64,000 bases of DNA from Bacillota bacterium (GCA_019428945.1 JAHYJM010000005.1:1562-65561); one strand, 5' to 3'. Counted from the stretch's first letter, positions 6,461 through 60,263 are shown. Program-made: numbers and translations. Notes: generated by a model not told the origin, from the letters alone.

Positions 6461-7042
6461 TTGAAAATTAACAAAGCTGAACTTAAAACCTCTGCCTACA
6501 GCGAAAACGATTTTCCTCCTTGGGATATGCCCGAGGTTTCCTTTATCGGGCGCTCAAATGTTGGCAAATCATCACTCTTGAACACCCTGATTGGCCGTAA
6601 AAATTTGGCCAGGATCAGCTCAACTCCCGGTAAAACCAGGGGACTCTACTTCTATGCCTTGAATGATAAACTATGCTTTGTTGATCTCCCCGGTTACGGT
6701 TATGCTAAAGTATCGAAAAAAGAACGTGAACGCTGGGCGCCAATTATTGAAGATTATCTTGCAACCAGAAGCAATCTACGCGGGTGTTTACACCTCATTG
6801 ATTGCCGTCACCAACCGACAGAAGATGACCGTTTAATGTCGGAATGGCTCCGGGCTCATACAATACCAACTATAACTGTGGCAACAAAATCAGACAAGAT
6901 GTCCCGGAGCGTTATGCTCAGGCAGCTGAAGGTTATCCGCACAGGTCTGGGACTATTTGATGAAGATCTGCTGCTGCCCTTTTCTTCCCGTACAGGAGCA
7001 GGTCGCGATGATTTGTGGAAAGCAATAATGAATGTAATTTAG
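6461..7042 (+). CDS. engB: Ribosome-biogenesis GTP-binding protein YsxC/EngB
   Basis: G1 motif GRSNVGKSSLLN, DLPGYGYAKVSK. The order lon-engB is conserved in Firmicutes. Start is TTG. Confidence 0.9.
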   Translation: MKINKAELKTSAYSENDFPPWDMPEVSFIGRSNVGKSSLLNTLIGRKNLARISSTPGKTRGLYFYALNDKLCFVDLPGYGYAKVSKKERERWAPIIEDYLATRSNLRGCLHLIDCRHQPTEDDRLMSEWLRAHTIPTITVATKSDKMSRSVMLRQLKVIRTGLGLFDEDLLLPFSSRTGAGRDDLWKAIMNVI

Positions 7043-7049
7043 TTAAAGG

Positions 7050-7835
7050 GTGATAAATTTGCCGTTTGCGGGAATTGATGTCGGTTCGCTCACAGCAGAA
7101 GTGGTGATTGTAGAACAGGGCAAAATTGTTAACTATACAATATGTCCCACAGGTTCCAACAGCAGAAAAGCGGCTGAAACTGCAATGAAAGAAGCGCTGC
7201 TGGGGGCAGATCTGAGCCTTTCGGATCTGCAGTACATCATTGCTACCGGTTACGGGCGTATAAATATTGATTTTGCCGATAAACGGGTTACTGAAATTAC
7301 CTGCCATGGGCGGGGCGCGCACTTTTGGAATCCCGATGTACGCACTATTATTGATATAGGCGGTCAGGACAGCAAAGTGATCAGGTTAAATACTGACGGC
7401 AGGGTTGTAGATTTTGCCATGAATGATAAGTGTGCCGCCGGCACAGGCCGTTTTTTGGAAGTGATGGCACAGGCTCTTGAAGTAGAACTGACCGGTCTGG
7501 CGGAACTGAGCGGAAAAGCGGAAAATACAGTTTCGATCAGCAGCATGTGTACTGTATTCGCTGAATCAGAAGTTGTATCCCTTATTGCCCGGGGGTTACC
7601 TCGGGAAGATATCGCCCGAGGGTTGCATCAGTCTATAGCAGATCGCACAGCCGGCCTTGTTAAAAGAGTTGGTCTTGAAGAACTTGTGATGATGACCGGT
7701 GGTGTGGCACGGAACAGTGCTGTTGTAAGCGCTCTTAATGACAAGCTGAAAACCGTAATCATCATTCCTCCCGAACCACAAATAGCAGGAGCGCTTGGCG
7801 CAGCTCTTCTGGCCGAAGAAGAAATAAAAACCTGA
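7050..7835 (+). CDS. BadF/BadG/BcrA/BcrD-family ATPase, HgdC-type CoA-substrate-specific enzyme activase (ATP-dependent [4Fe-4S] electron-transfer protein)
   Basis: Acetate/sugar-kinase-fold motifs GIDVGS and IIDIGGQDSK. The two conserved bridging-cluster cysteines are present (MNDKCAAGTGRFLE, SSMCTVFAESEV). Start is GTG at 7050 or TTG at 7059. Confidence 0.8.
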   Translation: MINLPFAGIDVGSLTAEVVIVEQGKIVNYTICPTGSNSRKAAETAMKEALLGADLSLSDLQYIIATGYGRINIDFADKRVTEITCHGRGAHFWNPDVRTIIDIGGQDSKVIRLNTDGRVVDFAMNDKCAAGTGRFLEVMAQALEVELTGLAELSGKAENTVSISSMCTVFAESEVVSLIARGLPREDIARGLHQSIADRTAGLVKRVGLEELVMMTGGVARNSAVVSALNDKLKTVIIIPPEPQIAGALGAALLAEEEIKT

Positions 7836-46656: not shown

Positions 46657-46681
46657 AAAAGGGCGGAGTCTTTGCCCCGCC
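46655..46681 (-). terminator. Intrinsic terminator for tupABC (hairpin plus U6 on the minus strand; bidirectional with the rng 3' end)
   Basis: GGCGG...CCGCC stem with an A6 run on the plus strand, which gives U6 after the stem on the minus strand. Confidence 0.5.
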
Positions 46682-46793: not shown

Positions 46794-47579
46794 TCAATAG
46801 ACCATTTTCCCTTCTACAAAAAGCCGGGTACTTTCATTGTCAGGTTTCGAGAAAATTTTTTCTGTAGGGCCCATTTCAACTATTTTACCCTGGTTTATGA
46901 ATATAACCTGGTCGGCTATACGCTTTGCCTGAAAGACGTTGTGGGTGACCATGATGACGGTGATTGCTTTATCACGGGCCATTTTGATGATCATCTCTTC
47001 AATTAATTCTATATTGCCCGGATCAAGGTTGGCTGTTGGCTCATCAAGAAGCAGTATTTCCGGCTCGAAAGCAACCGCCCTGGCGATAGCTACTCTTTGG
47101 GCTTCACCCCCGGAAAGTGTTTCTGCCCGCCGGCTGGCCAGTTCAGTCATTCCAATCTGATCGAGAAGGGAGTTTACCCTGATTTCAATTTCCTTTTTAT
47201 TGAAACCGCGGGCTTTGAGACCGTAAGCTATGTTATTCCAGACGGTATCCTTAAATAAAAGGGTTTTTTGAAAGACAAGAGCCATATTGCGCTGTAGGGT
47301 TAGCTTTCCCAGCCCATTTTTTGGTGCAGGCTCGCCATTATATAGGATTTCCCCACTGCTTTGATCCGTTAGCATGTTTATAATTCTTAGCAGGGTGCTT
47401 TTACCGGCGCCGCTGGGTCCGATAACTCCATATATGCAGCCTTTGGTAAGAATGAGCTCATTAATATAAAGTACTTCTTCATCATATATCTTTCTGACTG
47501 CTTTCATTTCAAGCAGAATATTTTCACAGTTAATTTTTTTTGCCTCCTTTCTGGATTGTATAAAGGACTGAATTGACAA
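46794..47579 (-). CDS. tupC: Tungstate/molybdate-type ABC transporter ATP-binding protein (TupC-like)
   Basis: Walker A GPSGAGKST, ABC signature LSGGEAQRV, Walker B LLLDEP. It is in an operon with TupA/TupB-like genes. Confidence 0.8.
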   Translation of the reverse strand: MSIQSFIQSRKEAKKINCENILLEMKAVRKIYDEEVLYINELILTKGCIYGVIGPSGAGKSTLLRIINMLTDQSSGEILYNGEPAPKNGLGKLTLQRNMALVFQKTLLFKDTVWNNIAYGLKARGFNKKEIEIRVNSLLDQIGMTELASRRAETLSGGEAQRVAIARAVAFEPEILLLDEPTANLDPGNIELIEEMIIKMARDKAITVIMVTHNVFQAKRIADQVIFINQGKIVEMGPTEKIFSKPDNESTRLFVEGKMVY

Positions 47580-48228
47580 TAAAGGAAATCATCAGCAGAA
47601 TAATTCCCAATCCGATTGCCAGTTCAAAATTGCCTTTTCTTGTTTCGAGGACTATAGCGGTTGTCATAACTCTGGTGTGGCCTTCAATATTGCCGCCGAC
47701 GATCATAACCGCGCCAACCTCTGCCACTACCCTGCTAAAACCGGTGATTACTGCTCCCAGGATAGCATAGCGTGATTCTTTAACGACTGTCCATGCCGCC
47801 AGCGCAGAACCTGCACCAAGAGATCTGGCCGTTTCTTCAATTTCTCCTCCTTTGGCCCTGATCCCGACCATAGTCAGACCGATCACAATTGGTGAGGCAA
47901 GAAATACCTGGGCGATGATCATTGCTGATGGAGTATAAAGCAGACCAAGCACTCCAAGCGGTCCCTGCCTTGAGAGAATTAAGAAGATGATTAAACCGGC
48001 CACAACCGGAGGCATGCCCATAAATGTAAAGATGATTTTATTGAAAAAGCCGGTCTTTTTTTCTTCCTTTAAACCAAGTAAAGTACCAATGGGCACTCCG
48101 ATTAGAGTAGCTAATAAAATAGCAGTAATCGATACACGCAGTGATAACAGAACAATTGTCAGCAGATCCGGGTCAAATGATATGATCAGGCGAAGCGCTT
48201 CCAATAAACCTTCATATAGTCGGGACAA
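47530..48228 (-). CDS. tupB: Tungstate ABC transporter permease (TupB-like)
   Basis: 232-aa permease with 5-6 transmembrane helices. It lies between tupA and tupC. Confidence 0.8.
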   Translation of the reverse strand: MSRLYEGLLEALRLIISFDPDLLTIVLLSLRVSITAILLATLIGVPIGTLLGLKEEKKTGFFNKIIFTFMGMPPVVAGLIIFLILSRQGPLGVLGLLYTPSAMIIAQVFLASPIVIGLTMVGIRAKGGEIEETARSLGAGSALAAWTVVKESRYAILGAVITGFSRVVAEVGAVMIVGGNIEGHTRVMTTAIVLETRKGNFELAIGLGIILLMISFIVNSVLYTIQKGGKKN

Positions 48229-48445: not shown

Positions 48446-48474
48446 CCGGCGCTCCTGCATCGCAGGAGCGCCGG
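48446..48474. other. Perfect 13-bp palindromic hairpin (CCGGCGCTCCTGC-ATC-GCAGGAGCGCCGG) immediately 3' of tupA, inside the 250-nt tupA-tupB gap
   Basis: Read directly. A second imperfect hairpin sharing the GCGCTCCTG/CAGGAGCGC arms lies at ~48244-48300. Confidence 0.5.
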
Positions 48475-48480
48475 ACCTTT

Positions 48481-49380
48481 TTATTCCAATCCGTAACCTG
48501 GGAAGAAGAGTGTCTCGCCGTTAACCTGGTAAGAATTGATCAGGTTTTGCCCTTCTTCCGACATGAGGAATTCTACGTACATCATGGCATATTCGTACTT
48601 AATGCCCTCATGTAATTCAGGATTGACAGCCATGACGCCATACTGGTTAAAAAGAACCGGATCGCCTTCCAGCGCTATAACCAGGTCAATACTGTCTTTC
48701 ATTGAAACATAAGTGCCGCGGTCGGTAAGAGTATATCCGAGACGTTCATTGGCATGGTTAATTGTATCGCCCATACCCTGGCCGATTGACTCATACCAGC
48801 TTTCGCCTGCCGGATCAATACCGGCTGCTTCCCAGAGACGCAGTTCCATCCGGTGCGTTCCAGAATCATCGCCCCGTGATACAAAGATAGCGCCGCTGTC
48901 GGCAATTAAAGACATCGCTTCTGCTGCAGTTGTTACACCACCCACGCCAGCTGGATCCTCAGCAGGGCCAACAAAGATAAAGTCATTATACATGACATCA
49001 TAACGGTCTACAAAATAACCATCCTCTACGCCCTGCAGTTCTGATCCCCGATCGTGAACAAGCAAAACGTCAGCATCTCCACTGCGGCCGGTTTCCAACG
49101 CGGCCCCGGTGCCCTGGGAAACCACCCTGACTTCGAGGCCAGTTTGTTCTGTAAAAATTGGGTTAAGAAAATCGAGCAGGCCTGAATCATAGGTGCTAGT
49201 TGTGGTAGCCAGGATAATAAAGTCATCAATTAGCTCAACTTCTTCTTCCGGTGTGGTTTCTTCTTCAACCGGTTCTTCAACCGGGGCTCCTTCTTCTGCG
49301 CATCCGGCAAAGAATAAAAGTGCTGCCATAAGCATTAAACCAAATAAAAGCTTAAACTGAATTGAACTACGGTTAAACAT
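48481..49380 (-). CDS. tupA: Tungstate-binding periplasmic lipoprotein TupA
   Basis: Lipoprotein signal LLFFAGC and the TTTS oxyanion-binding motif (ILATTTSTYDSGLLDFL). Confidence 0.8.
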   Translation of the reverse strand: MFNRSSIQFKLLFGLMLMAALLFFAGCAEEGAPVEEPVEEETTPEEEVELIDDFIILATTTSTYDSGLLDFLNPIFTEQTGLEVRVVSQGTGAALETGRSGDADVLLVHDRGSELQGVEDGYFVDRYDVMYNDFIFVGPAEDPAGVGGVTTAAEAMSLIADSGAIFVSRGDDSGTHRMELRLWEAAGIDPAGESWYESIGQGMGDTINHANERLGYTLTDRGTYVSMKDSIDLVIALEGDPVLFNQYGVMAVNPELHEGIKYEYAMMYVEFLMSEEGQNLINSYQVNGETLFFPGYGLE

Positions 49381-49440
49381 TAAAAGTCCACTCTCCTCTT
49401 GGTAGTATATTAATTAATACTATGCTTTAATCCGCTGGAA

Positions 49441-49570
49441 AGATGGTCGTGGCATACAACCACGAGAGCCTTCTTTCCGCAACGGGAGGCACAGCTGTTT
49501 CCGGCCGTACCCCAGCCTGCTATTCATGACGCTGCAAGATCGCTTTAGAATGAACAGGTCGAAGGTAAAA
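49441..49570 (-). ncRNA. Structured 5'-leader element E1 directly abutting the tupA RBS; candidate Moco/Tuco-class riboswitch (translation-control type)
   Basis: Shares the conserved blocks CCTTCTTTCCGCAACGGGAGGC, GTTTCC and GATCGAAGG with E2 and E3. It is followed on the minus strand by AAGAGGAGAG (RBS) and the tupA ATG. Confidence 0.45.
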
Positions 49571-49621
49571 CTTTTAGAAATGCTTTATTCCTTAACACTT
49601 CACCCCCCTTGTTTGGTCAAC

Positions 49622-49795
49622 AAAAAAAATCGCAGTTTCCCATGGGTAAGTGCGATTTTAATAACTTTCCTTGATCCTTCTTTCCGCAATGGGAGGCCCG
49701 GCCGTTTCCAGCTAAACCCTGTCGTCCACCTTTCGTAGCAACATGTAGTGCTTTAGATACAGTGGATCGAAGGTTATTATTTAATTGTTAGCAAG
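49622..49795 (-). ncRNA. Structured element E2 with intrinsic-terminator expression platform; candidate Moco/Tuco-class riboswitch (transcription-termination type), in tandem upstream of E1/tupA
   Basis: ~85% identical to E3 over ~150 nt. The minus-strand hairpin ATCGCA..TGCGAT (49629-49656) is followed by U8. Confidence 0.45.
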
Positions 49796-49890
49796 CACAC
49801 TATATCAGGATATTTAAACCATGTCAACTTTGGCAGGTGATCAAAACCGGGCTGGTTTTGCCAGGTTGTTATAAAAAAATATCCTGATTT

Positions 49891-50766
49891 TTAGGCTTTA
49901 CCTACCTTTCCCTTATCCTCTATGGCAGCAGGAACATCTTCACGGTAGATGGTGGAACCGACTTCTCCTCCATCAAGTGCACTGCTAATACTTCCCGGTA
50001 CAAGCCCGTTGATAATCCGGATCTCTTTCAAGTTTTTGGCTGAAAGCAGGTATTCAAGTACGGCTCTTTCAATTACCAGGTCTTCCAAATCTCTTTCGAT
50101 TAAATCTTTTGCGCTGATTCTGGGAATCAACTCCGCATTTGAGTCAATTTTAGGATTATCCGTATAGAGCCCATCGACATCTTTGACATAGATACATTGC
50201 TTTGCGCCGATGACTTCTGCGAGCAAAAATGCTCCCACATCTGTGCGGTTCTGAGGCAATCGTCCTTCAGTCGGGAGCGGCTCCCAGTATCCGTAGGGAG
50301 GCATGCCGTGAACAACAGGAATGCATCCCTGGGCAAAATAGGCACCCAGCTTGGGTATGTCATCGTGGCCGATTTTAATTCCCCCGTAAGGGCTAAGCAG
50401 GGTGGAAAGGATTAACGCATTCTGTTCAGATACGCTCTGACCCAACTTTGCTATTATACCTGTGGGCATTCCCAGCTCCATGGCTATAGCGTAAACGTGG
50501 CGGGAACGAGTGCCTCCGCCAGTAGAGATTATCATTTTATGCTTTTTTGCGTTACTGACGATCTCTTCTATAATTGGTATTACTGCTTTAGCTCCGATGT
50601 CGGTAATACTTTGACCGCCGACTTTCAATACGCTGACATCGGGGAATACCTTGAAAGGTTCACCATATTCAAGACTTTTTAAAAAAGACTTACCAACCAG
50701 TGATTCACCCATCAGCTTGCTTTTCAGGTGAAGCCTTTTACTGTCTTTTTCCCGAATTAAAGCCAT
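49891..50766 (-). CDS. Amino-acid-kinase (AAK) superfamily protein (UMP-kinase / isopentenyl-phosphate-kinase / Mo-storage-protein-like fold)
   Basis: The N-terminal nucleotide-binding motif VLKVGGQSITD and MIISTGGGTRSRH. 291 aa. Last gene of the element-controlled operon. Confidence 0.7.
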   Translation of the reverse strand: MALIREKDSKRLHLKSKLMGESLVGKSFLKSLEYGEPFKVFPDVSVLKVGGQSITDIGAKAVIPIIEEIVSNAKKHKMIISTGGGTRSRHVYAIAMELGMPTGIIAKLGQSVSEQNALILSTLLSPYGGIKIGHDDIPKLGAYFAQGCIPVVHGMPPYGYWEPLPTEGRLPQNRTDVGAFLLAEVIGAKQCIYVKDVDGLYTDNPKIDSNAELIPRISAKDLIERDLEDLVIERAVLEYLLSAKNLKEIRIINGLVPGSISSALDGGEVGSTIYREDVPAAIEDKGKVGKA

Positions 50767-50818
50767 ACTTAGTCATTATCCTTCCAGGTTAATAAATTTA
50801 GGTTGCACAATGAACACA

Positions 50819-51043
50819 TTAATCATCATCTTCATCATCTAGATCGTCATTATGTTTGCCGGCTTCAAGGTAAACCACTTCTGCGCCTACAGCATCGGCT
50901 ATCTGCTCAACTTCCATCTTCCGAATATGCTTAATTTTGAACTTTACGTCAACGTCAGTTACTGCTACTATGGCGAAACGCGGTTTTTTCTCGCCATCTT
51001 TAACCTTTCGGCGTTCGCGAATAAAAATTTTCCCGCTACCCAT
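50819..51043 (-). CDS. Small protein (74 aa) with a poly-acidic C-terminal tail (DDLDDEDDD), function unknown
   Basis: ORF with RBS GGAGG, sitting between two co-oriented genes. Confidence 0.5.
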   Translation of the reverse strand: MGSGKIFIRERRKVKDGEKKPRFAIVAVTDVDVKFKIKHIRKMEVEQIADAVGAEVVYLEAGKHNDDLDDEDDD

Positions 51044-51129
51044 CTCATCACCTCCTAAATAGCATTATTAAGAATAGATTTAACTTATTATAATATATTA
51101 AATTCTTTATGTCACAATTATATCTATTT

Positions 51130-51885
51130 TTAATGATGCCGGCGAAGGTATTCCATGGGACAGGTTTGCCAGGAAGCCTGCTTATTGATATCATGATTCG
51201 GAACAACCAATAAAACTTTACGGTTGTTGATTAAAACGCCCTTCACTTTTTCCCCTAGTTTAATAACTGTATCATCTGAAAGTATCATGCCGGATAAATC
51301 CTCAACTGAGTCTATGGCAGTAGAATTTAGAAGAACCTTAACTGAAGTTGTTTCACCCGGTTTACCCAGTTCATACTTTCCCCTAAAACGCCCATCGCTG
51401 CCGCTTAATCGTAAACCTACCCCGGCCAGAGCTCCAATTACTCCATGGCCGGTTCCGCCATGTTCTGATAATCGTATATTTAGTGATGCAGCGAGATCAT
51501 AGGCGCTCGACTTGCTTAGGACTTCAACCTTAGCTCTACGGCCAAATCCAACTAAAGCCTCTTTTTGTTGATCGGAGAGAATATCAGCATTTGCCAGACA
51601 AAATCCCGGATCAGATCCGTTAGCTCTATATTGAACGAGAAGTTTGGGAAATAACTTTAAGAGCATTTCGGACCTTTTGGTATCCACTTCTGTCGTCACT
51701 GACATGGCGCTGTTATGAGAAGTATAAGGGATGGAAGGGTGAACGAAAAGCTGATGCCTCACCACTCCTGAAAAAGCGATCCCACTGTTAGCCTCAATTT
51801 CACTGACAATCTTTGTCAGCAGGCGCCCTGTTCCCATTTCTGTTGTATGGTTGTCCGTGTCATCTATGCCAATGATAACTTTCAT
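51130..51885 (-). CDS. Conserved hypothetical protein with N-terminal IGIDDTD motif (possibly TiaS-type kinase-domain-like), first gene after element E3
   Basis: 251 aa, no transmembrane segments. MKVIIGIDDTDNHTTEMGTGRL. The TiaS resemblance is recalled and low-confidence. Confidence 0.6.
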   Translation of the reverse strand: MKVIIGIDDTDNHTTEMGTGRLLTKIVSEIEANSGIAFSGVVRHQLFVHPSIPYTSHNSAMSVTTEVDTKRSEMLLKLFPKLLVQYRANGSDPGFCLANADILSDQQKEALVGFGRRAKVEVLSKSSAYDLAASLNIRLSEHGGTGHGVIGALAGVGLRLSGSDGRFRGKYELGKPGETTSVKVLLNSTAIDSVEDLSGMILSDDTVIKLGEKVKGVLINNRKVLLVVPNHDINKQASWQTCPMEYLRRHH

Positions 51886-52039
51886 TGTTTTATTCCACCA
51901 TCACTATCAGTTTTAAGCAAAAAATAGAGCTGATTTTTTTGCCGGCAAACTTTCCAACTACTTTGCAGTCAGAAAAACCATTGTTTTTTAAGTATTCCCT
52001 GCTAAACAAAATATTTCCTCCAGGGCATAATTAAAGACT

Positions 52040-52200
52040 AAAAAATCGCATCTTCCCGGTGAGAAATGCGATCAATTTATACTTGTGGTGATCCTTCTTT
52101 CCGCAACGGGAGGCGCGGCCGTTTCCAGCCGAACCCTGTCGTCCACCTTTCATAGCAGTATCAAGTGCCTTAGAAACAGTAGATCGAAGGTGATACATAT
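52040..52200 (-). ncRNA. Structured element E3 (aptamer-like region plus hairpin/U6 terminator) upstream of the 51885 operon; candidate Moco/Tuco-class riboswitch
   Basis: Conserved core GTGGTGATCCTTCTTTCCGCAACGGGAGGCGCGGCCGTTTCCAGCC...GATCGAAGG. The terminator ATCGCA..TGCGAT (52045-52072) is followed by U6 on the minus strand. Confidence 0.45.
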
Positions 52201-52299
52201 TTGATTGTTAACTACACTATGCATTTTATAACAAATATCTTAATTGGTCAAGAAAATTGATCAATATTACTTTGTTTTGGGTAGTTTTTTTGGGTTTGT

Positions 52300-52328
52300 T
52301 TGACAAAGCATTACCAGCGTGTTAAAAT
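52300..52328 (+). promoter_or_regulatory. Sigma-A promoter for rplU (TTGACA-17-TAAAAT), with an ~88-nt leader downstream (possible L21 leader)
   Basis: Hexamers read directly. It is divergent from element E3. Confidence 0.5.
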
Positions 52329-52422
52329 CTCGATTAGACTTATAACCGCACGAAGAAGGTCCAAAATGCCCCGCAAAGCATTGGGCTACCAGCTTCGGCG
52401 AGTCCTTACGGGGGGTTTGTTT

Positions 52423-57422: not shown

Positions 57423-57782
57423 TGTACTCGAGGTGCCATATAGATTTTGATGAAGGGAAGCAGTAAGCAGGAATGTTTTCTCAGAGAGCCGGCGCCTGGT
57501 GAAAACCGGCAGGCGGAACTGCTGAACTCGTCCCGGAGAAGCAGCGGTAAATTTTTAAAACGCTGCCGTAAACCGGCGTTAACGGTAGAAAGAGGGCAGC
57601 ATATCATGGGGCTGTGGCGCAGGGGGAGCGCGCTTCCTTGGCATGGAAGAGGCCGCGGGTTCAATTCCCGCCAGCTCCACCACATTTTGTCTGACCAATA
57701 AGGGTGGTACCGCGGGTATGAATCCGTCCCTTGACAGGGCGGATTTTTTATTTGGTGAAACATATGGAGACGGAGGTTTAAT
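57423..57782 (+). promoter_or_regulatory. T-box riboswitch leader of leuS (Leu, CUC specifier), interrupted by a tRNA gene
   Basis: The 5' part reads GAUGAAGGGAAGCAGUA (Stem-I base GA motif), ...GAACUCG (specifier-loop candidate) and AGAGAG/GGUGAAAA (distal elements). The 3' part carries the T-box sequence AATAAGGGTGGTACCGCGG (57697-57715) and the terminator ATCCGTCCCT/AGGGCGGAT+T6 (57722-57749). The RBS GGAGACGGAGG precedes the ATG. Confidence 0.65.
57608..57683 (+). tRNA. tRNA-Ala (anticodon GGC)
   Basis: Cloverleaf folded by hand. 7-bp acceptor with a G3:U70 wobble, discriminator A73, D-stem GCGC/GCGC, anticodon stem CTTCC/GGAAG, loop UUGGCAU (GGC), T-stem GCGGG/CCCGC with TTCAATT loop, and an encoded CCA. 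Confidence 0.85.
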
Positions 57783-60263
57783 ATGGTGACGAACTATAAT
57801 CCTGCCGAAATCGAAGAAAAATGGCAGCAGAAATGGGCTGAGGATGATTCCTTCCGCTCGGAAATCGACCATGATAAAACCAAGTATTATGTCCTGGAGA
57901 TGTTCCCCTATCCATCAGGGAAACTGCACATGGGCCATATGCGCGTCTATTCAATTGGTGATGTACTGGCTCGTTTTTTACGTATGCGCGGCTTCAATGT
58001 TATTCATCCAATGGGTTGGGATGCTTTTGGTCTTCCTGCAGAAAATGCAGCAATAGATCACCGGGTTAACCCGGCAATCTGGACTGAACAGAATATAGAA
58101 CATATGAAAAAACAGCAGAACCGGCTGGGAGTCAGCTATGACTGGAGTCGTGAGGTTAATACCTCTGCTCCTGATTATTATCGTTGGTCCCAGTGGTTAT
58201 TTCTTTTAATGTATAAACGCGGGCTGGCTTATAAGAAACAGGCCAGTGTTAACTGGTGTGAAACCTGTGAAACTGTGCTGGCAAATGAACAAGTGGAAAA
58301 GGGTCTTTGCTGGCGCTGTTCATCAGTAGTTGAAACACGTGATCTCGAACAATGGTTTTTACGTATAACTGAATATGCCGAACGTTTGCTTTATGATCTG
58401 GATAAGCTGGAAGATTGGCCTGAAAGGGTCAAAACTATGCAGCACAACTGGATCGGTCGCAGCGAAGGTGCTGAAATAGCATTTAAGGTGAAGGAAATAC
58501 CGGAAGAAGAGGTACGCACATTTACTACCCGGCCTGACACTCTCTTCGGGGTTACATCTATGGTTCTTGCTCCGGAACACCCGCTGGTTAAAAAATTAGT
58601 TGAGGGTACCGAAAGAGAGAAAGATGTAATGGACTTTGTCGCCAGGGTCAGAAAAGAGAGCGAAATTGAACGCACCGCAGATGAGGCGCCAAAAATCGGA
58701 CTATTTACCGGGCGCCATGTTGTTAATCCGATCAATGGTGAAGAAATCCCTGTCCTGGTTGGCAATTATGTCCTGATGGGCTATGGAACAGGTGCAGTAA
58801 TGGGTGTACCCGCTCATGATCAGCGGGATTTCGAATTCGCCAAAAAACATAAACTGCCGATAAGGATAGTTATCCAGCCTGAAGGCGAAGAACTTGATGA
58901 ACACACTATTACAGAAGCTTATACCGGTGAAGGTGTAATGGTGAACTCCGGCAGTTTTAACGGCCTTAATAATACAGAAGGCATGAAGAAAGTGACTGAG
59001 TACCTTAAAGAGAAAGGGCTCGGTGATTTCAGGGTTACTTTCCGGTTGCGGGATTGGCTGATTTCAAGGCAGCGATACTGGGGCGCTCCGATACCGATTG
59101 TCTATTGTGATAAGTGTGGAACAGTACCTGTTCCTGAAACTGATCTGCCCGTTAAACTGCCTCATGATGTGGAGCTATCAGGGAACAGGGTTCCGGGTCT
59201 TGCCCATTATGAAGAGTTTGTTAAGGCTACCTGTCCGGTTTGTGGCGAACCGGCGCGTCGTGAAACTGATACAATGGATACTTTTATATGCTCATCCTGG
59301 TACTTTTTCAGGTATGCCAGCCCACATTCACAAATTGCGCCATTTGAGAAGGATGATGTTGATTATTGGATGCCGGTTGATCAGTATATCGGGGGGATTG
59401 AACATGCAGTGCTCCATCTTCTTTATGCCCGGTTTTTCACCAAGGTTTTGTTTGATGCAGGAATGACCAGGGCAGAAGAACCTTTCAGCCGCCTGTTGGC
59501 CCAGGGAATGGTCTACAAGGATGGCGCTAAAATGTCCAAATCAAAGGGTAATGTGGTAACACCTGATGAAATTGTTGAAAGGTACGGCGCCGACACCGGA
59601 CGTCTCTTTATATTGTTTGCGGCTCCTCCCGAAAAAGATCTTGACTGGAATGACCAGGGGGTAGAAGGTTCGCATCGTTTTCTTCGCCGGGTCTGGCGTC
59701 TTGTAGTGGAATGCCGCGAGCAGTTTGCCACCGGAAAGGGCAATGCAGATCATGGTGAAAAGGAAGCTGAGCTTGAAAGAGTTTTGCATGCGACAATCAG
59801 GAAAGTTACGCACGACATTGAGAAGAGATTTAACTTTAACACAGCGATCAGCGCTATCATGGAGCTGGTCAATGCCATCTATAATTACCGTCTCAGCGTT
59901 GAAGAGGTTAAACAAAACAATAGTCTGTTAAAAGAGACGCTCGTAAAAACAATATTACTGCTGGCGCCTTTTGCACCTCACCTTGCTGAAGGGGCATGGA
60001 ATCTGCTTGGATACAAAGAGAGTGTGCACAAACAGAGCTGGCCCGAGTTCGATACAGTTAAACTGGTAGTTGATGAAGTTGAAATTGTTGTCCAGATTAA
60101 CGGTAAAGTACGCGGCAGAATGGTTGTCCCAGTCGACTTTAATGAAGATGACCTTGCCGAAGCTGCCCGTGAAAATGAGCGTATCAGTGAGCTCATCGAA
60201 GGCAGAGAGGTAGTTAAAATCATAGCAGTTAAAGGACGACTGGTTAACATAGTAGTCCGTTAG
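57783..60263 (+). CDS. leuS: Leucyl-tRNA synthetase
   Basis: 826 aa. The HIGH motif appears as HMGH and the KMSKS motif is present. The CP1 editing domain is present. Confidence 0.95.
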   Translation: MVTNYNPAEIEEKWQQKWAEDDSFRSEIDHDKTKYYVLEMFPYPSGKLHMGHMRVYSIGDVLARFLRMRGFNVIHPMGWDAFGLPAENAAIDHRVNPAIWTEQNIEHMKKQQNRLGVSYDWSREVNTSAPDYYRWSQWLFLLMYKRGLAYKKQASVNWCETCETVLANEQVEKGLCWRCSSVVETRDLEQWFLRITEYAERLLYDLDKLEDWPERVKTMQHNWIGRSEGAEIAFKVKEIPEEEVRTFTTRPDTLFGVTSMVLAPEHPLVKKLVEGTEREKDVMDFVARVRKESEIERTADEAPKIGLFTGRHVVNPINGEEIPVLVGNYVLMGYGTGAVMGVPAHDQRDFEFAKKHKLPIRIVIQPEGEELDEHTITEAYTGEGVMVNSGSFNGLNNTEGMKKVTEYLKEKGLGDFRVTFRLRDWLISRQRYWGAPIPIVYCDKCGTVPVPETDLPVKLPHDVELSGNRVPGLAHYEEFVKATCPVCGEPARRETDTMDTFICSSWYFFRYASPHSQIAPFEKDDVDYWMPVDQYIGGIEHAVLHLLYARFFTKVLFDAGMTRAEEPFSRLLAQGMVYKDGAKMSKSKGNVVTPDEIVERYGADTGRLFILFAAPPEKDLDWNDQGVEGSHRFLRRVWRLVVECREQFATGKGNADHGEKEAELERVLHATIRKVTHDIEKRFNFNTAISAIMELVNAIYNYRLSVEEVKQNNSLLKETLVKTILLLAPFAPHLAEGAWNLLGYKESVHKQSWPEFDTVKLVVDEVEIVVQINGKVRGRMVVPVDFNEDDLAEAARENERISELIEGREVVKIIAVKGRLVNIVVR

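Follow-up and report, generated by a model that had tools for sequence, protein, structure and literature searches.

Three features of the Moco RNA motif (Rfam RF01055) frame what follows: the riboswitch class, the link between loss of P3 and tungsten, and tandem arrangement were all published in 2008 (PMC2408646). In the literature, the tungsten-associated subclass is marked by a missing P3 (PMC2408646; PMC11725836). The ligand assignment for P3-less RNAs is a genomic correlation that 17 of 19 organisms fit, with exceptions (PMC2408646), and the Tuco specificity proposed for these RNAs derives from this published correlation. For the E. coli moaA riboswitch, the evidence is genetic (PMC2408646); lability of the cofactor puts standard assays out of reach. 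Data from E. limosum tie P3-less riboswitches to tungsten limitation (PMC11725836). Tandem Moco RNAs are known in Syntrophomonas wolfei and Geobacter metallireducens (PMC2408646).

On the protein side, the molybdenum storage protein (MoSto) is a cage for polyoxometalate clusters, whose formation depends on ATP; it also binds tungsten, and its loading needs ATP. A 2019 paper described it as without known homologues. The tungstate storage gene tub of E. limosum is reported to belong to the Rex regulon and not to lie behind a Tuco riboswitch (PMC11725836). How cells choose tungsten over molybdenum, store it and insert it is poorly understood. Here we describe a bacterial locus in which three P3-less riboswitches precede the tungstate transporter genes tupABC and three further genes, orfA, orfB and orfC. 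All features lie on the minus strand of the window, the whole 64,000-nucleotide stretch of DNA that was analysed.

Three P3-less RF01055 aptamers and the tup genes

RF01055 matches the window at E3 (52078..52201; 65.5 bits, E = 1.6e-13), at E2 (49661..49784; 61.2 bits, E = 3e-12) and, in tandem after E2, at E1 (49454..49576; 55.9 bits, E = 1e-10), in each case well above the gathering score of 36. Each copy spans the full model (positions 1-135) with the P3 positions deleted; at the P3 site, just 2-5 nt join P2 and the long helix. E1-E3 are confirmed as P3-less Moco/Tuco riboswitch aptamers. Over aptamer and platform together, E3 is 86% identical to E2 and 82% to E1, and E2 is 75-77% identical to E1. 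The 22-nt block CCTTCTTTCCGCAAYGGGAGGC is found at three sites and nowhere else (52093-52114, 49676-49697 and 49469-49490), against an expectation of 0 from 100 shuffles. The conserved 3' core of the aptamer, GCCUCCCRUUGCGGAAAGAAGG, is found in all three copies, and GGAAAC (GTTTCC on the plus strand) forms the GAAA tetraloop that caps the long helix. A first-pass annotation of this DNA had placed three such copies on the minus strand, where they indeed lie, and had suggested the RF01055 search that all three now pass; of the blocks it took to be common to them, CCTTCTTTCCGCAAYGGGAGGC and GTTTCC are shared throughout, but GATCGAAGG is confined to E2 and E3, E1 carrying GGTCGAAGG instead.

Covariation was assessed with a covariance model (CM) built from eight consistent sequences, onto which the Rfam structure was transferred by hand, followed by CM realignment. 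In the resulting alignment of 60 relatives, which is fitted to the model, 86.9% were paired, compared with 69.3% when shuffled and 36-48% when slid; in this same model-fitted alignment, 28 of the 33 aptamer pairs changed on both sides. The approach replaced an RNAalifold analysis of 16 aptamers aligned by MAFFT alone, in which just two helices emerged, the 3' strand of P1 having been misaligned by MAFFT between Bacillota and Desulfuromonadota sequences. All 60 aptamers found around the orfA/orfB/orfC gene set are P3-less. No P3-containing RF01055 element was found in the 24 loci scanned with Rfam, nor any P3-containing Moco riboswitch in 13 Rfam-scanned orfA loci that the P3-less model had left unmatched (L012, L013 and 11 more).

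The genes behind E2 and E1 encode a tungstate-binding protein (tupA, 48481..49380), a permease (tupB, 47530..48228; ABC_perm1 at 241.9 bits, above its cut-off) and an ABC ATPase recognized by profile matches (tupC, 46794..47579). A terminator scan places a terminator-like hairpin and T-run after tupC (46662..46681). Among NCBIfam models, the tupA product matches TupA best, with 214 bits where the equivalog cut-off is 400; the tupB product likewise falls below the equivalog cut-off of the TupB model, with 168 bits. Diagnostic of TupA are a TTTS motif and a conserved Arg (R118 in D. alaskensis TupA); the tupA product carries ATTTSTYDSG and FVSRGDDSGT, and permease and ATPase genes adjoin it. tupA supplies a tungsten-specific downstream gene of the kind associated with the Tuco subclass. 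The suggestion made at first pass, of a Tuco-type variant of the Moco motif, gains support from the RF01055 scores, the missing P3 and the TTTS/VSRGDxSGT signatures of the downstream tupA.

It is unlikely that these genuine RF01055 aptamers instead recognize Moco, both metal forms, or a pterin intermediate that is metal-free or shared, the loss of P3 being a structural variant that does not determine tungsten specificity. Such a ligand would accord with a P3-less specificity that is correlative and has exceptions, with the MOT1-family and ModA-like (SBP_bac_11) genes that adjoin orfABC in relatives, and with a storage protein known primarily for molybdenum. However, the uniform absence of P3 around the gene set (60 of 60 aptamers, with P3-containing RF01055 in 0 of 24 Rfam-scanned loci) argues against this reading, as do a regulated transporter bearing the TTTS and Arg signatures of TupA rather than those of ModA and the link between P3-less riboswitches and tungsten limitation in E. 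limosum (PMC11725836).

Expression platforms and predicted switching

The E3 and E2 leaders each appear to have their own sigma-70-like promoter. A TTGACC-17-TAAAAT site (52223..52251) lies 22 nt upstream of the start of the E3 aptamer, and a promoter scan returned TTGACA-17-TATAGT with a TG extension (49799..49827) for the E2-E1-tupABC leader. A separate promoter for E1 was considered and rejected, with no promoter-like site between the E2 terminator and E1. By eye, a TTGACC in this interval is accompanied by a weak -10 element.

Folding reveals intrinsic terminators behind E3 (52039..52072; AUCGCAUUUCUC...GGGAAGAUGCGAU followed by U6) and behind E2 (49621..49656; AUCGCACUUACC...GGGAAACUGCGAU followed by U8); a simple scan misses both because their loops exceed its 8-nt limit. 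In E3, the 5' arm and loop of the terminator can pair with the 3' core of the aptamer (52114-52093) as an antiterminator, and this fold has a computed energy of -51.3 kcal/mol compared with -50.8 kcal/mol for aptamer plus terminator. In E2, an alternative antiterminator is formed with the aptamer core at 49697-49676; it is seen only in a truncated, co-transcriptional-style fold, and at full length the terminator persists in the minimum-free-energy structure whether or not the aptamer is constrained. When the whole leaders (337 and 418 nt) were folded to minimum free energy, the long-range pairings obtained were of questionable meaning, and local and truncated folds were used in their place. 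The E1 platform (49391..49453) has no terminator; it contains a hairpin followed by the segment CCAUCUUUCC (49446-49437), for which there are two alternative partners, GGAAAGAAGG of the aptamer and the Shine-Dalgarno (SD) sequence GGAGAG of tupA (49396-49391). The probability that this SD is unpaired is 0.20-0.42 in the free RNA and 0.00-0.01 with the E1 aptamer enforced. Even without ligand, part of the SD is folded against the 5' strand of P1, so that only a modest dynamic range is predicted, and one that varies with sequence context.

The ATCGCA...TGCGAT hairpins and U tracts that had been noticed in E2 and E3 are therefore real, and the reading of these elements as cis-regulatory leaders is borne out by the terminators and promoters that E2 and E3 possess. 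By contrast, E1 had been said to abut the tupA ribosome-binding site directly, but about 58 nt, containing a hairpin and a CUUUCC segment, separate the end of the aptamer (49454) from the SD.

We infer that E1-E3 most probably respond to the tungsten form of the pyranopterin cofactor as OFF switches and gate two transcription units. In E3 and E2, the terminator competes with an antiterminator built on the conserved 3' core of the aptamer, and both are therefore read as OFF switches. The first unit would run from its promoter through the E3 aptamer, the terminator, a remnant of a gene termed orfK, orfA and orfB to orfC, and the second from its promoter through the E2 aptamer, the terminator, the E1 aptamer and the SD sequestor to tupABC. 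With the cofactor scarce, the 3' core of each aptamer would be free for downstream pairing. In E3 and E2, the core would take up the terminator's 5' arm and loop, and the resulting antiterminator would permit read-through; in E1 it would pair with CCAUCUUUCC in an antisequestor that leaves the tupA SD partly open. Cofactor binding would lock P1 and the core, so that the E3 and E2 terminators fold and, in E1, the released CUUUCC pairs with the SD. The tup operon would thus be gated twice in series, by the E2 terminator at transcription and by the E1 sequestor at translation. Under this model, scarcity of the tungsten cofactor would induce high-affinity tungstate uptake and, at the same time, a MoSto-type, presumably ATP-driven, oxyanion-cluster cage (orfC) together with orfB and the putatively ATP-using, TCKD-like orfA, whose products would capture and process the incoming metal.

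Genes behind E3

Between E3 and orfA lies a 39-aa open reading frame with a GGAGG ribosome-binding site (51890..52009). In relatives, a Bud32/RIO/APH-like gene of 241-248 aa, orfK, stands downstream of a P3-less riboswitch, and comparison with these genes indicates that E3 is joined to orfA through the N-terminal remnant, some 24 codons long, of a deleted kinase-like orfK. In three close relatives (L001, L086 and L088) the riboswitch precedes orfK, and orfABC has none of its own; the link between E3 and orfABC is therefore lineage-specific, although many other genomes place orfA under riboswitch control. The orfA product (51130..51885; 251 aa), formerly listed as a 'GIDDTD' protein, has by fold and sequence comparison the fold of the TiaS TCKD kinase domain, with an IDDTD motif, and an unmatched C-terminal domain of about 80 aa. 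It aligns only to TiaS residues 1 to about 160 and scores 39 bits against a 600-bit cut-off in NCBIfam and 21.9 against 27 in Pfam; orfA is not TiaS. Its family is large and unannotated, with more than 2000 'hypothetical' proteins, and in 31 of the 80 species genomes sampled it is encoded behind a P3-less riboswitch. In 12 other species orfA starts less than 400 nt after such a riboswitch, and in 19 more it ends a riboswitch-headed operon; a riboswitch is lacking at 35 of the 66 orfA loci with enough upstream sequence.

The orfB product (50819..51043; 74 aa) has a basic N-terminus and an acidic tail and is the conserved partner of the MosB-like gene, orfC being consistently accompanied by an orfB-type protein of 66-110 aa. 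It has no Pfam or NCBIfam match, and its AlphaFold model, of moderate confidence (pLDDT 74), gave no significant fold match in the PDB. A candidate internal promoter before orfB (GTGACA-17-TATAAT, 51087..51115), proposed solely from 11 of 12 consensus matches, may allow orfB and orfC to bypass E3 control in part.

Control of orfABC by E3 might be an accident of deletion, E3 having led orfK and orfBC being expressed mainly from an internal promoter, in which case the genes need not respond to tungsten. We regard this as improbable, even though the 39-aa frame after E3 is an apparent orfK remnant. Also in favour of an accident are the three relatives in which orfABC has no riboswitch of its own, the candidate promoter before orfB and the orfB-orfC pair of the S. 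wolfei type, which is likewise riboswitch-free. Against this, the closest relative (L087, 71% orfA identity) has orfK, orfA, orfB and orfC contiguous on one strand, so that co-transcription behind the orfK leader is probably older than the deletion. Moreover, the interval between E3 and orfA holds no promoter-like site, the 12 direct and 19 operon-end cases above place orfA behind a P3-less riboswitch in other species, and orfC and orfB also fall within riboswitch-headed operons in two further loci (L017 and L040).

The 291-aa product of orfC (49891..50766) has an amino-acid-kinase fold and, from its sequence matches, is a homologue of the MoSto subunit MosB (2ogx_B: E = 2e-68, 234 bits), with weaker similarity to MosA (E = 1e-45, 160 bits); it shares 44% identity with A. 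vinelandii MosB over 260 gap-free residues. Metal handling is predicted. That orfC is instead an ordinary enzyme of the nucleotide- or amino-acid-kinase family, with orfA and orfB unrelated to metal and no tungsten store in the operon, we consider less likely still. Pfam returns AA_kinase alone, and NCBI names members of the family 'uridine kinase' or 'UMP kinase', but the best UMP kinase match (E = 5e-10, 42.6 bits) is far below that to MosB, and the NCBIfam kinase models all fall well short of their cut-offs. Across two phyla, orfC also recurs beside tupA, MOT1-type, ModA-like and riboswitch-controlled genes. On the side of the alternative, MoSto is built from two paralogous subunits as an (alpha-beta)3 heterohexamer, whereas tblastn found no second orfC match in the 64-kb window; a related locus (L084) does have two orfC paralogues. 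UMP kinases are homohexamers, and a homomeric orfC cage is therefore plausible. The genes behind E3 had been regarded as outside the classical Moco regulon, and they are indeed undescribed there; with its amino-acid-kinase-fold protein now a MoSto homologue and thus Mo/W-related, the E3 operon is a sensible, though undescribed, regulon member and not an anomaly. Finally, the idea that E1-E3 are a generic repeat or sRNA family has nothing in its favour beyond three similar copies and is already refuted by the Rfam scores, the covariation, the leaders with promoters and platforms, and the Mo/W gene association across genomes.

The RNAs themselves are ordinary and their detection is routine annotation, as Rfam finds all copies; the greater interest lies in the cargo genes, which are undescribed members of the regulon, and the value of the riboswitch is that of a functional label. 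It marks the families of orfA ('hypothetical'), orfB ('hypothetical') and orfC ('uridine kinase') as probably tungsten-related. In relatives, the gene set further includes a Cys-rich protein of about 70 aa (SCYNCRYRRWT...CCK), a Bud32-like small kinase and FecCD-type or ECF-type importers. We tentatively propose, as a possibility short of an even chance, that orfA, orfB and orfC constitute a pathway for tungsten capture, storage or trafficking in anaerobes that is induced through P3-less riboswitches by cofactor starvation. A storage protein under an OFF switch is in itself counter-intuitive, stores usually being made when metal is plentiful. If the proposal is true, MoSto-type storage would for the first time be known outside Azotobacter-like aerobes, and the more than 2000 'hypothetical' proteins of one family would gain a function. 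Contrary to the 2019 description, MoSto has thousands of homologues in anaerobes, located beside tungstate uptake genes, and the three genes are concrete candidates for the steps by which tungsten is selected, stored and inserted. A literature search pairing the molybdenum storage protein with a riboswitch gave no match. Homologues are present in cultivable relatives, among them Syntrophomonas, Pelotomaculum, Geobacter and Youngiibacter.

Comparison with known systems

At the RNA level, E1-E3 do not differ from RF01055 as represented by the E. coli moaA leader, the P3-less 'Tuco' subclass (Regulski et al. 2008) and the Tuco riboswitches of E. limosum (Shao et al. 2024). They share the full aptamer architecture, with P1, a P2 containing the tetraloop-receptor-like CUAAR/YAUGA internal loop, the GAAA-capped long helix, the short CC/GG helix and the CCUCCC...GGAAAG core. 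With the P3-less Tuco subclass they have in common the loss of P3, the control of tupABC and the use of terminator and RBS-sequestor platforms. The Moco/Tuco riboswitch literature searched does not list orfA, orfB or the MoSto-like orfC as part of the regulon.

Tandem riboswitches offer a second comparison. Welz and Breaker reportedly described tandem TPP riboswitches in 2007. Like other tandem riboswitches, E2-E1 consists of two complete aptamers of the same class in one leader, each with its own platform, and the arrangement also occurs upstream of tup genes in two related loci (L018 and L045). E2-E1 differs in that control is predicted to be split between levels, E2 acting on termination and E1 on translation initiation.

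Among proteins, orfA compares with the TCKD domain of TiaS, the archaeal tRNA(Ile2) agmatidine synthetase (3amt), and with the stand-alone P. furiosus protein 3u02. TiaS has about 420 aa, whereas orfA, with 251 aa, lacks the ferredoxin-like, OB and zinc-ribbon tRNA-binding domains; it is bacterial, lies within Mo/W gene clusters and has the additional C-terminal domain. With A. vinelandii MoSto (MosA/MosB; 2ogx, 4f6t and 6gu5), orfC shares the amino-acid-kinase fold. MoSto is an alpha/beta pair, whereas the window has a single orfC gene together with orfB, for which the MoSto literature searched holds no counterpart, and the host of orfC, unlike Azotobacter, belongs to the anaerobic Bacillota and carries genes for tungstate uptake. 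The TOBE-domain tungstate storage protein Tub of E. limosum resembles orfC as a proposed cytoplasmic tungsten store in anaerobic Bacillota, but the two have unrelated folds: Tub is a TOBE hexamer that holds 8 tungstates, and orfC is predicted to form a cage of the amino-acid-kinase fold.

Three P3-less riboswitches

When the entire window was searched with Rfam 15 at gathering thresholds, three full-length minus-strand matches emerged, all of them to RF01055 ('Molybdenum/Tungsten riboswitch aptamer (Moco RNA motif)'): E3 (52201-52078; 65.5 bits, E = 1.6e-13), E2 (49784-49661; 61.2 bits, E = 3e-12) and E1 (49576-49454; 55.9 bits, E = 1e-10). The first-pass annotation had proposed three related minus-strand elements and tentatively this class; the matches, all within 49300-52400, bear out both, with each copy exceeding the gathering score of 36. 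The 22-nt block it had described occurs exactly three times, against zero expected by chance, but GATCGAAGG, thought common to all copies, is present in E2 and E3 and replaced by GGTCGAAGG in E1. Over the aptamer and the expression platform 3' of it, E3 and E2 share 86% identity, and E1 shares 75-82% with those two.

The P3 hairpin positions of the model are deleted in each of the Rfam alignments, and the linker from P2 to the long GAAA-capped helix is only 2-5 nt. Moco RNAs without P3 make up 58 of 176, and this type correlates almost perfectly with genes for the tungsten cofactor, Tuco (Regulski et al. 2008, PMC2408646); five Eubacterium limosum 'Tuco riboswitches', one before tupABC, were named by the P3-less criterion (Shao et al. 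2024, PMC11725836). A covariance model was built from eight P3-less sequences, onto which the Rfam structure had been mapped by hand; searched against the window and 80 loci from related genomes, it yielded 60 matches. In the alignment of these matches, which was fitted to the model so that pairing figures lean towards the structure, standard pairs occupy 86.9% of cells versus 69.3% in shuffles, and both-sided changes occur at 28 of 33 pairs. Sliding the partners by 1-3 columns lowers standard pairs to 36-48%, which argues against an artefact of model fitting. Judged by Rfam scores, P3 deletion and pairing statistics, E1-E3 carry every sequence-level hallmark of RF01055 and of its P3-less subclass, and their membership in the family is virtually certain.

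Promoter-like sites precede E3 (52251-52223, minus strand; TTGACC-17-TAAAAT) and E2 (49827-49799, minus strand; TTGACA-17-TATAGT), and the promoter scan found none between E2 and E1. E3 has two nearly isoenergetic folds: an antiterminator (-51.3 kcal/mol), formed between the conserved 3' core of the aptamer and the downstream hairpin's 5' arm and loop, and an alternative (-50.8 kcal/mol) comprising the aptamer plus an AUCGCA...UGCGAU hairpin and U6, the terminator already read from the sequence by eye. The full-length E2 fold keeps its terminator in both cases; truncated before the terminator 3' arm, the transcript folds into an antiterminator equivalent to that of E3. The two paralogues differ here in a compensatory way that supports the helix: CCCG (E3) versus CCCAU (E2) in the aptamer is mirrored by CGGG versus AUGGG in the loop of the terminator. 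Because the antiterminator uses up the aptamer core, a bound ligand should tip the balance towards termination, and E3 and E2 are thus predicted to be OFF switches, a mode of action that we consider likely for these riboswitches.

The E1 platform contains no terminator. E1 had been placed directly against the tupA ribosome-binding site, but a gap of ~58 nt separates aptamer and site. The aptamer GGAAAGAAGG is able to pair with CCAUCUUUCC (49446-49437); with the aptamer enforced, CUUUCC pairs with the Shine-Dalgarno sequence GGAGAG (49396-49391), and the mean unpaired probability of the latter falls from 0.20-0.42 to 0.00-0.01 in three sequence contexts. This is the sequestor/antisequestor arrangement known from the tupABC leader of E. 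limosum (PMC11725836). In silico the ligand-free state opens only in part, which makes the E1 platform the least secure element of the model. Together, E2 and E1 are a true tandem, two complete switches within one leader, with E2 predicted to act at transcription and E1 at translation. Tandem P3-less copies also lie upstream of tup genes in two related loci (L018 and L045), and tandem Moco RNAs were noted in Syntrophomonas wolfei and Geobacter metallireducens (Regulski et al. 2008, PMC2408646).

Downstream of E1 follow tupA, tupB, tupC and a terminator. The tupA product is a PBP_like_2 protein with TupA as best NCBIfam match, and its TTTS and VSRGDDSGT motifs are those by which tungstate-binding TupA is defined (PMC5517513). 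This context and the published correlation make Tuco, rather than the molybdenum cofactor (Moco) or both, the fairly likely ligand. Right after the tupA stop, in the 250-nt tupA-tupB spacer, lies a 13-bp GC-rich hairpin (48446-48474) with a T-run on the plus strand and none on the coding (minus) strand; it is likely either an mRNA-stabilising or processing hairpin favouring excess binding protein, or a convergent plus-strand terminator.

Elsewhere in the window, a T-box leader (RF00230, 111.8 bits; 57441-57734, plus strand) lies 5' of leuS (57783-60263). Its specifier region, ...GAACUCG..., plausibly contains the Leu codon CUC, and a 98-nt insertion holds a complete tRNA-Ala(GGC) gene with encoded CCA end (57608-57682), called by both Rfam and ARAGORN. 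A non-cognate tRNA nested in a T-box leader is an unusual arrangement.

The genes behind E3

The 291-aa product of orfC, the last gene behind E3, matches MosB with E = 2e-68, MosA with 1e-45 and the best UMP kinase with 5e-10, and shares 44% identity with Azotobacter vinelandii MosB over 260 ungapped positions. By sequence, it is a clear homologue of the A. vinelandii molybdenum storage protein (MoSto). The first-pass annotation had described it as an AAK-fold protein in a gene set outside the classical Moco regulon; as a MoSto homologue, it is not unrelated to Mo/W. MoSto holds >100 Mo atoms in the form of polyoxometalate clusters, accumulates W as well, requires ATP hydrolysis for loading, and was stated in 2019 to have no known homologues (PMC6448029). 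Contrary to that statement, 2682 database relatives of orfC reach E <= 1e-10, many of them from Syntrophomonadaceae, Desulfotomaculaceae and Pelotomaculum. NCBI calls them 'uridine kinase' or 'uridine monophosphate kinase' and JGI 'molybdenum storage protein'; as the MoSto-subunit match is far stronger than any UMP kinase match, the kinase names are very likely misannotations. Chances are about even that orfC encodes a W/Mo cluster store.

For orfB (74 aa), neither Pfam nor NCBIfam gave a family assignment, and its predicted model, of moderate confidence, had no match among solved folds. The family is real: at E <= 1e-3 it comprises 171 cluster representatives, every one a small protein, and it adjoins a MosB-like gene in Bacillota and Geobacter-type genomes. 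A promoter-like site ahead of orfB (11/12 consensus matches) may permit some riboswitch-independent expression of orfB and orfC. The 251-aa TiaS-TCKD-like protein OrfA is plausibly an ATP-using enzyme of W handling.

The window stems from a Bacillota MAG and is syntenic with the metagenomic relative L088 (radical-SAM - DUF2344 - RNase G - tupCBA - ... - rplU - rpmA - obg - nadD). orfABC lacks its own riboswitch in L088 and in two further loci (L001 and L086); the riboswitch there lies 3' of orfC and 5' of orfK, a Bud32/RIO/APH-like gene of 241-248 aa. The closest relative, L087, has the order orfK - orfA - orfB - orfC. Between the E3 terminator and orfA, the window holds a 39-aa ORF (MFSREYLKNNGFSDCKVVGKFAGKK...; 51890-52009, minus strand; GGAGG RBS), whose first ~24 codons match the orfK N-terminus; this ORF is what remains of a deleted orfK, and the orfK leader now abuts orfA. 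E3 and its terminator are closer to the tupA-type riboswitches of relatives (77-83%) than to their orfK-type ones, and E3 is by this likeness probably a duplicate of the E2 lineage. Given its place directly behind a P3-less riboswitch in L001, L086 and L088, the orfK kinase-fold family is a candidate for another undescribed regulon member. Neighbours of orfABC in relatives include DUF364 'putative heavy-metal chelation', ModA-like SBP_bac_11 and MFS_MOT1 molybdate-transporter-family proteins (L088 8129-8878; L087 2823-3104; L083 6061-7224), which fit the metal oxyanion theme.

orfA loci across genomes

We compared 80 loci from different species with orfA as anchor, for which at least 592 matches exist. 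In 48 of them, orfA closes an operon of FecCD permease, ABC ATPase and Peripla_BP_2 genes, at whose head a small Oxidored_molyb-domain protein is often encoded; a Cys-rich ~70-aa protein follows orfA in 43, orfB and/or orfC are present in 13 and tupA in 14. A same-strand P3-less riboswitch lies <400 nt upstream of orfA at 12 loci and heads the orfA operon, 3-6 kb upstream, at 19 further ones. No such riboswitch is present at 35 loci whose upstream sequence extends to 4.3 kb or more, and the other 14 have too little upstream sequence to be judged. Rfam scans of 13 riboswitch-less loci (L012, L013 and 11 others) found no RF01055, so these are not P3-containing variants.

Pelotomaculum propionicicum and a Desulfotomaculaceae MAG show the order FecCD - ABC - PBP2 - orfA - orfB - orfC - MOT1-family transporter, and Geobacter-type loci typically tupA - tupA - tupC - orfC - orfB - riboswitch - orfA - Cys-rich protein - riboswitch - ECF transporter. 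By these recurring orders, the gene set is tied to Mo/W oxyanion genes and P3-less riboswitches in two phyla. The FecCD-type orfA operons are probably the 'Fe ABC-type' operons found behind Tuco riboswitches in E. limosum (Shao et al., PMC11725836), and the molybdopterin-binding-domain protein suggests that their substrate may be other than iron.

Several side observations concern these loci. A riboswitch-headed Oxidored_molyb-domain protein - FecCD permease - ABC ATPase - Peripla_BP_2 - orfA order is seen at L015 2191-6744 and 47 other loci. The Cys-rich protein directly 3' of orfA (L015 6762-6977; L034 6745-6957) reads ...DDEDE...SCYNCRYRRWT..SF.CCK, has no Pfam match and has no counterpart in the window. 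Seven Geobacter-type loci (L022, L023, L029, L033, L045, L068 and L072) have a further P3-less riboswitch 3' of orfA and the Cys-rich gene, at ~6950-7180, with only ABC-ATPase-like matches seen downstream; L034 7439-10203, where this riboswitch was not detected, encodes an ECF-type transporter whose two ATPases are fused, along with a T component resembling CbiQ and a candidate S component of 193 aa. In the Petroclostridium locus (L015 7142-9929), 3' of orfA and the Cys-rich gene and adjacent to the Tuco-regulated operon, an SrpI-like type 2A encapsulin shell protein with a cNMP-binding domain stands beside a class-V aminotransferase/cysteine desulfurase, a known pairing.

Proposed circuit and known systems

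In the best-supported reading, the three P3-less riboswitches are cofactor-repressed OFF switches that control two neighbouring units and gate tup twice. For a store, this mode of control is odd at first sight, but fits a scavenging logic: cofactor shortage would induce uptake together with a high-capacity sink, and the sink would keep free tungstate low and hoard it. Within the searchable literature, a scope that leaves out RegPrecise, where some of the genes may figure as hypothetical regulon members, we found neither a MoSto homologue, small partner and TCKD-like family in this regulon nor the recurrence of their association with it. The RNA finding is within reach of automatic annotation, and the riboswitch family, its P3-less form, the tup link and the tandem arrangement are all already published.
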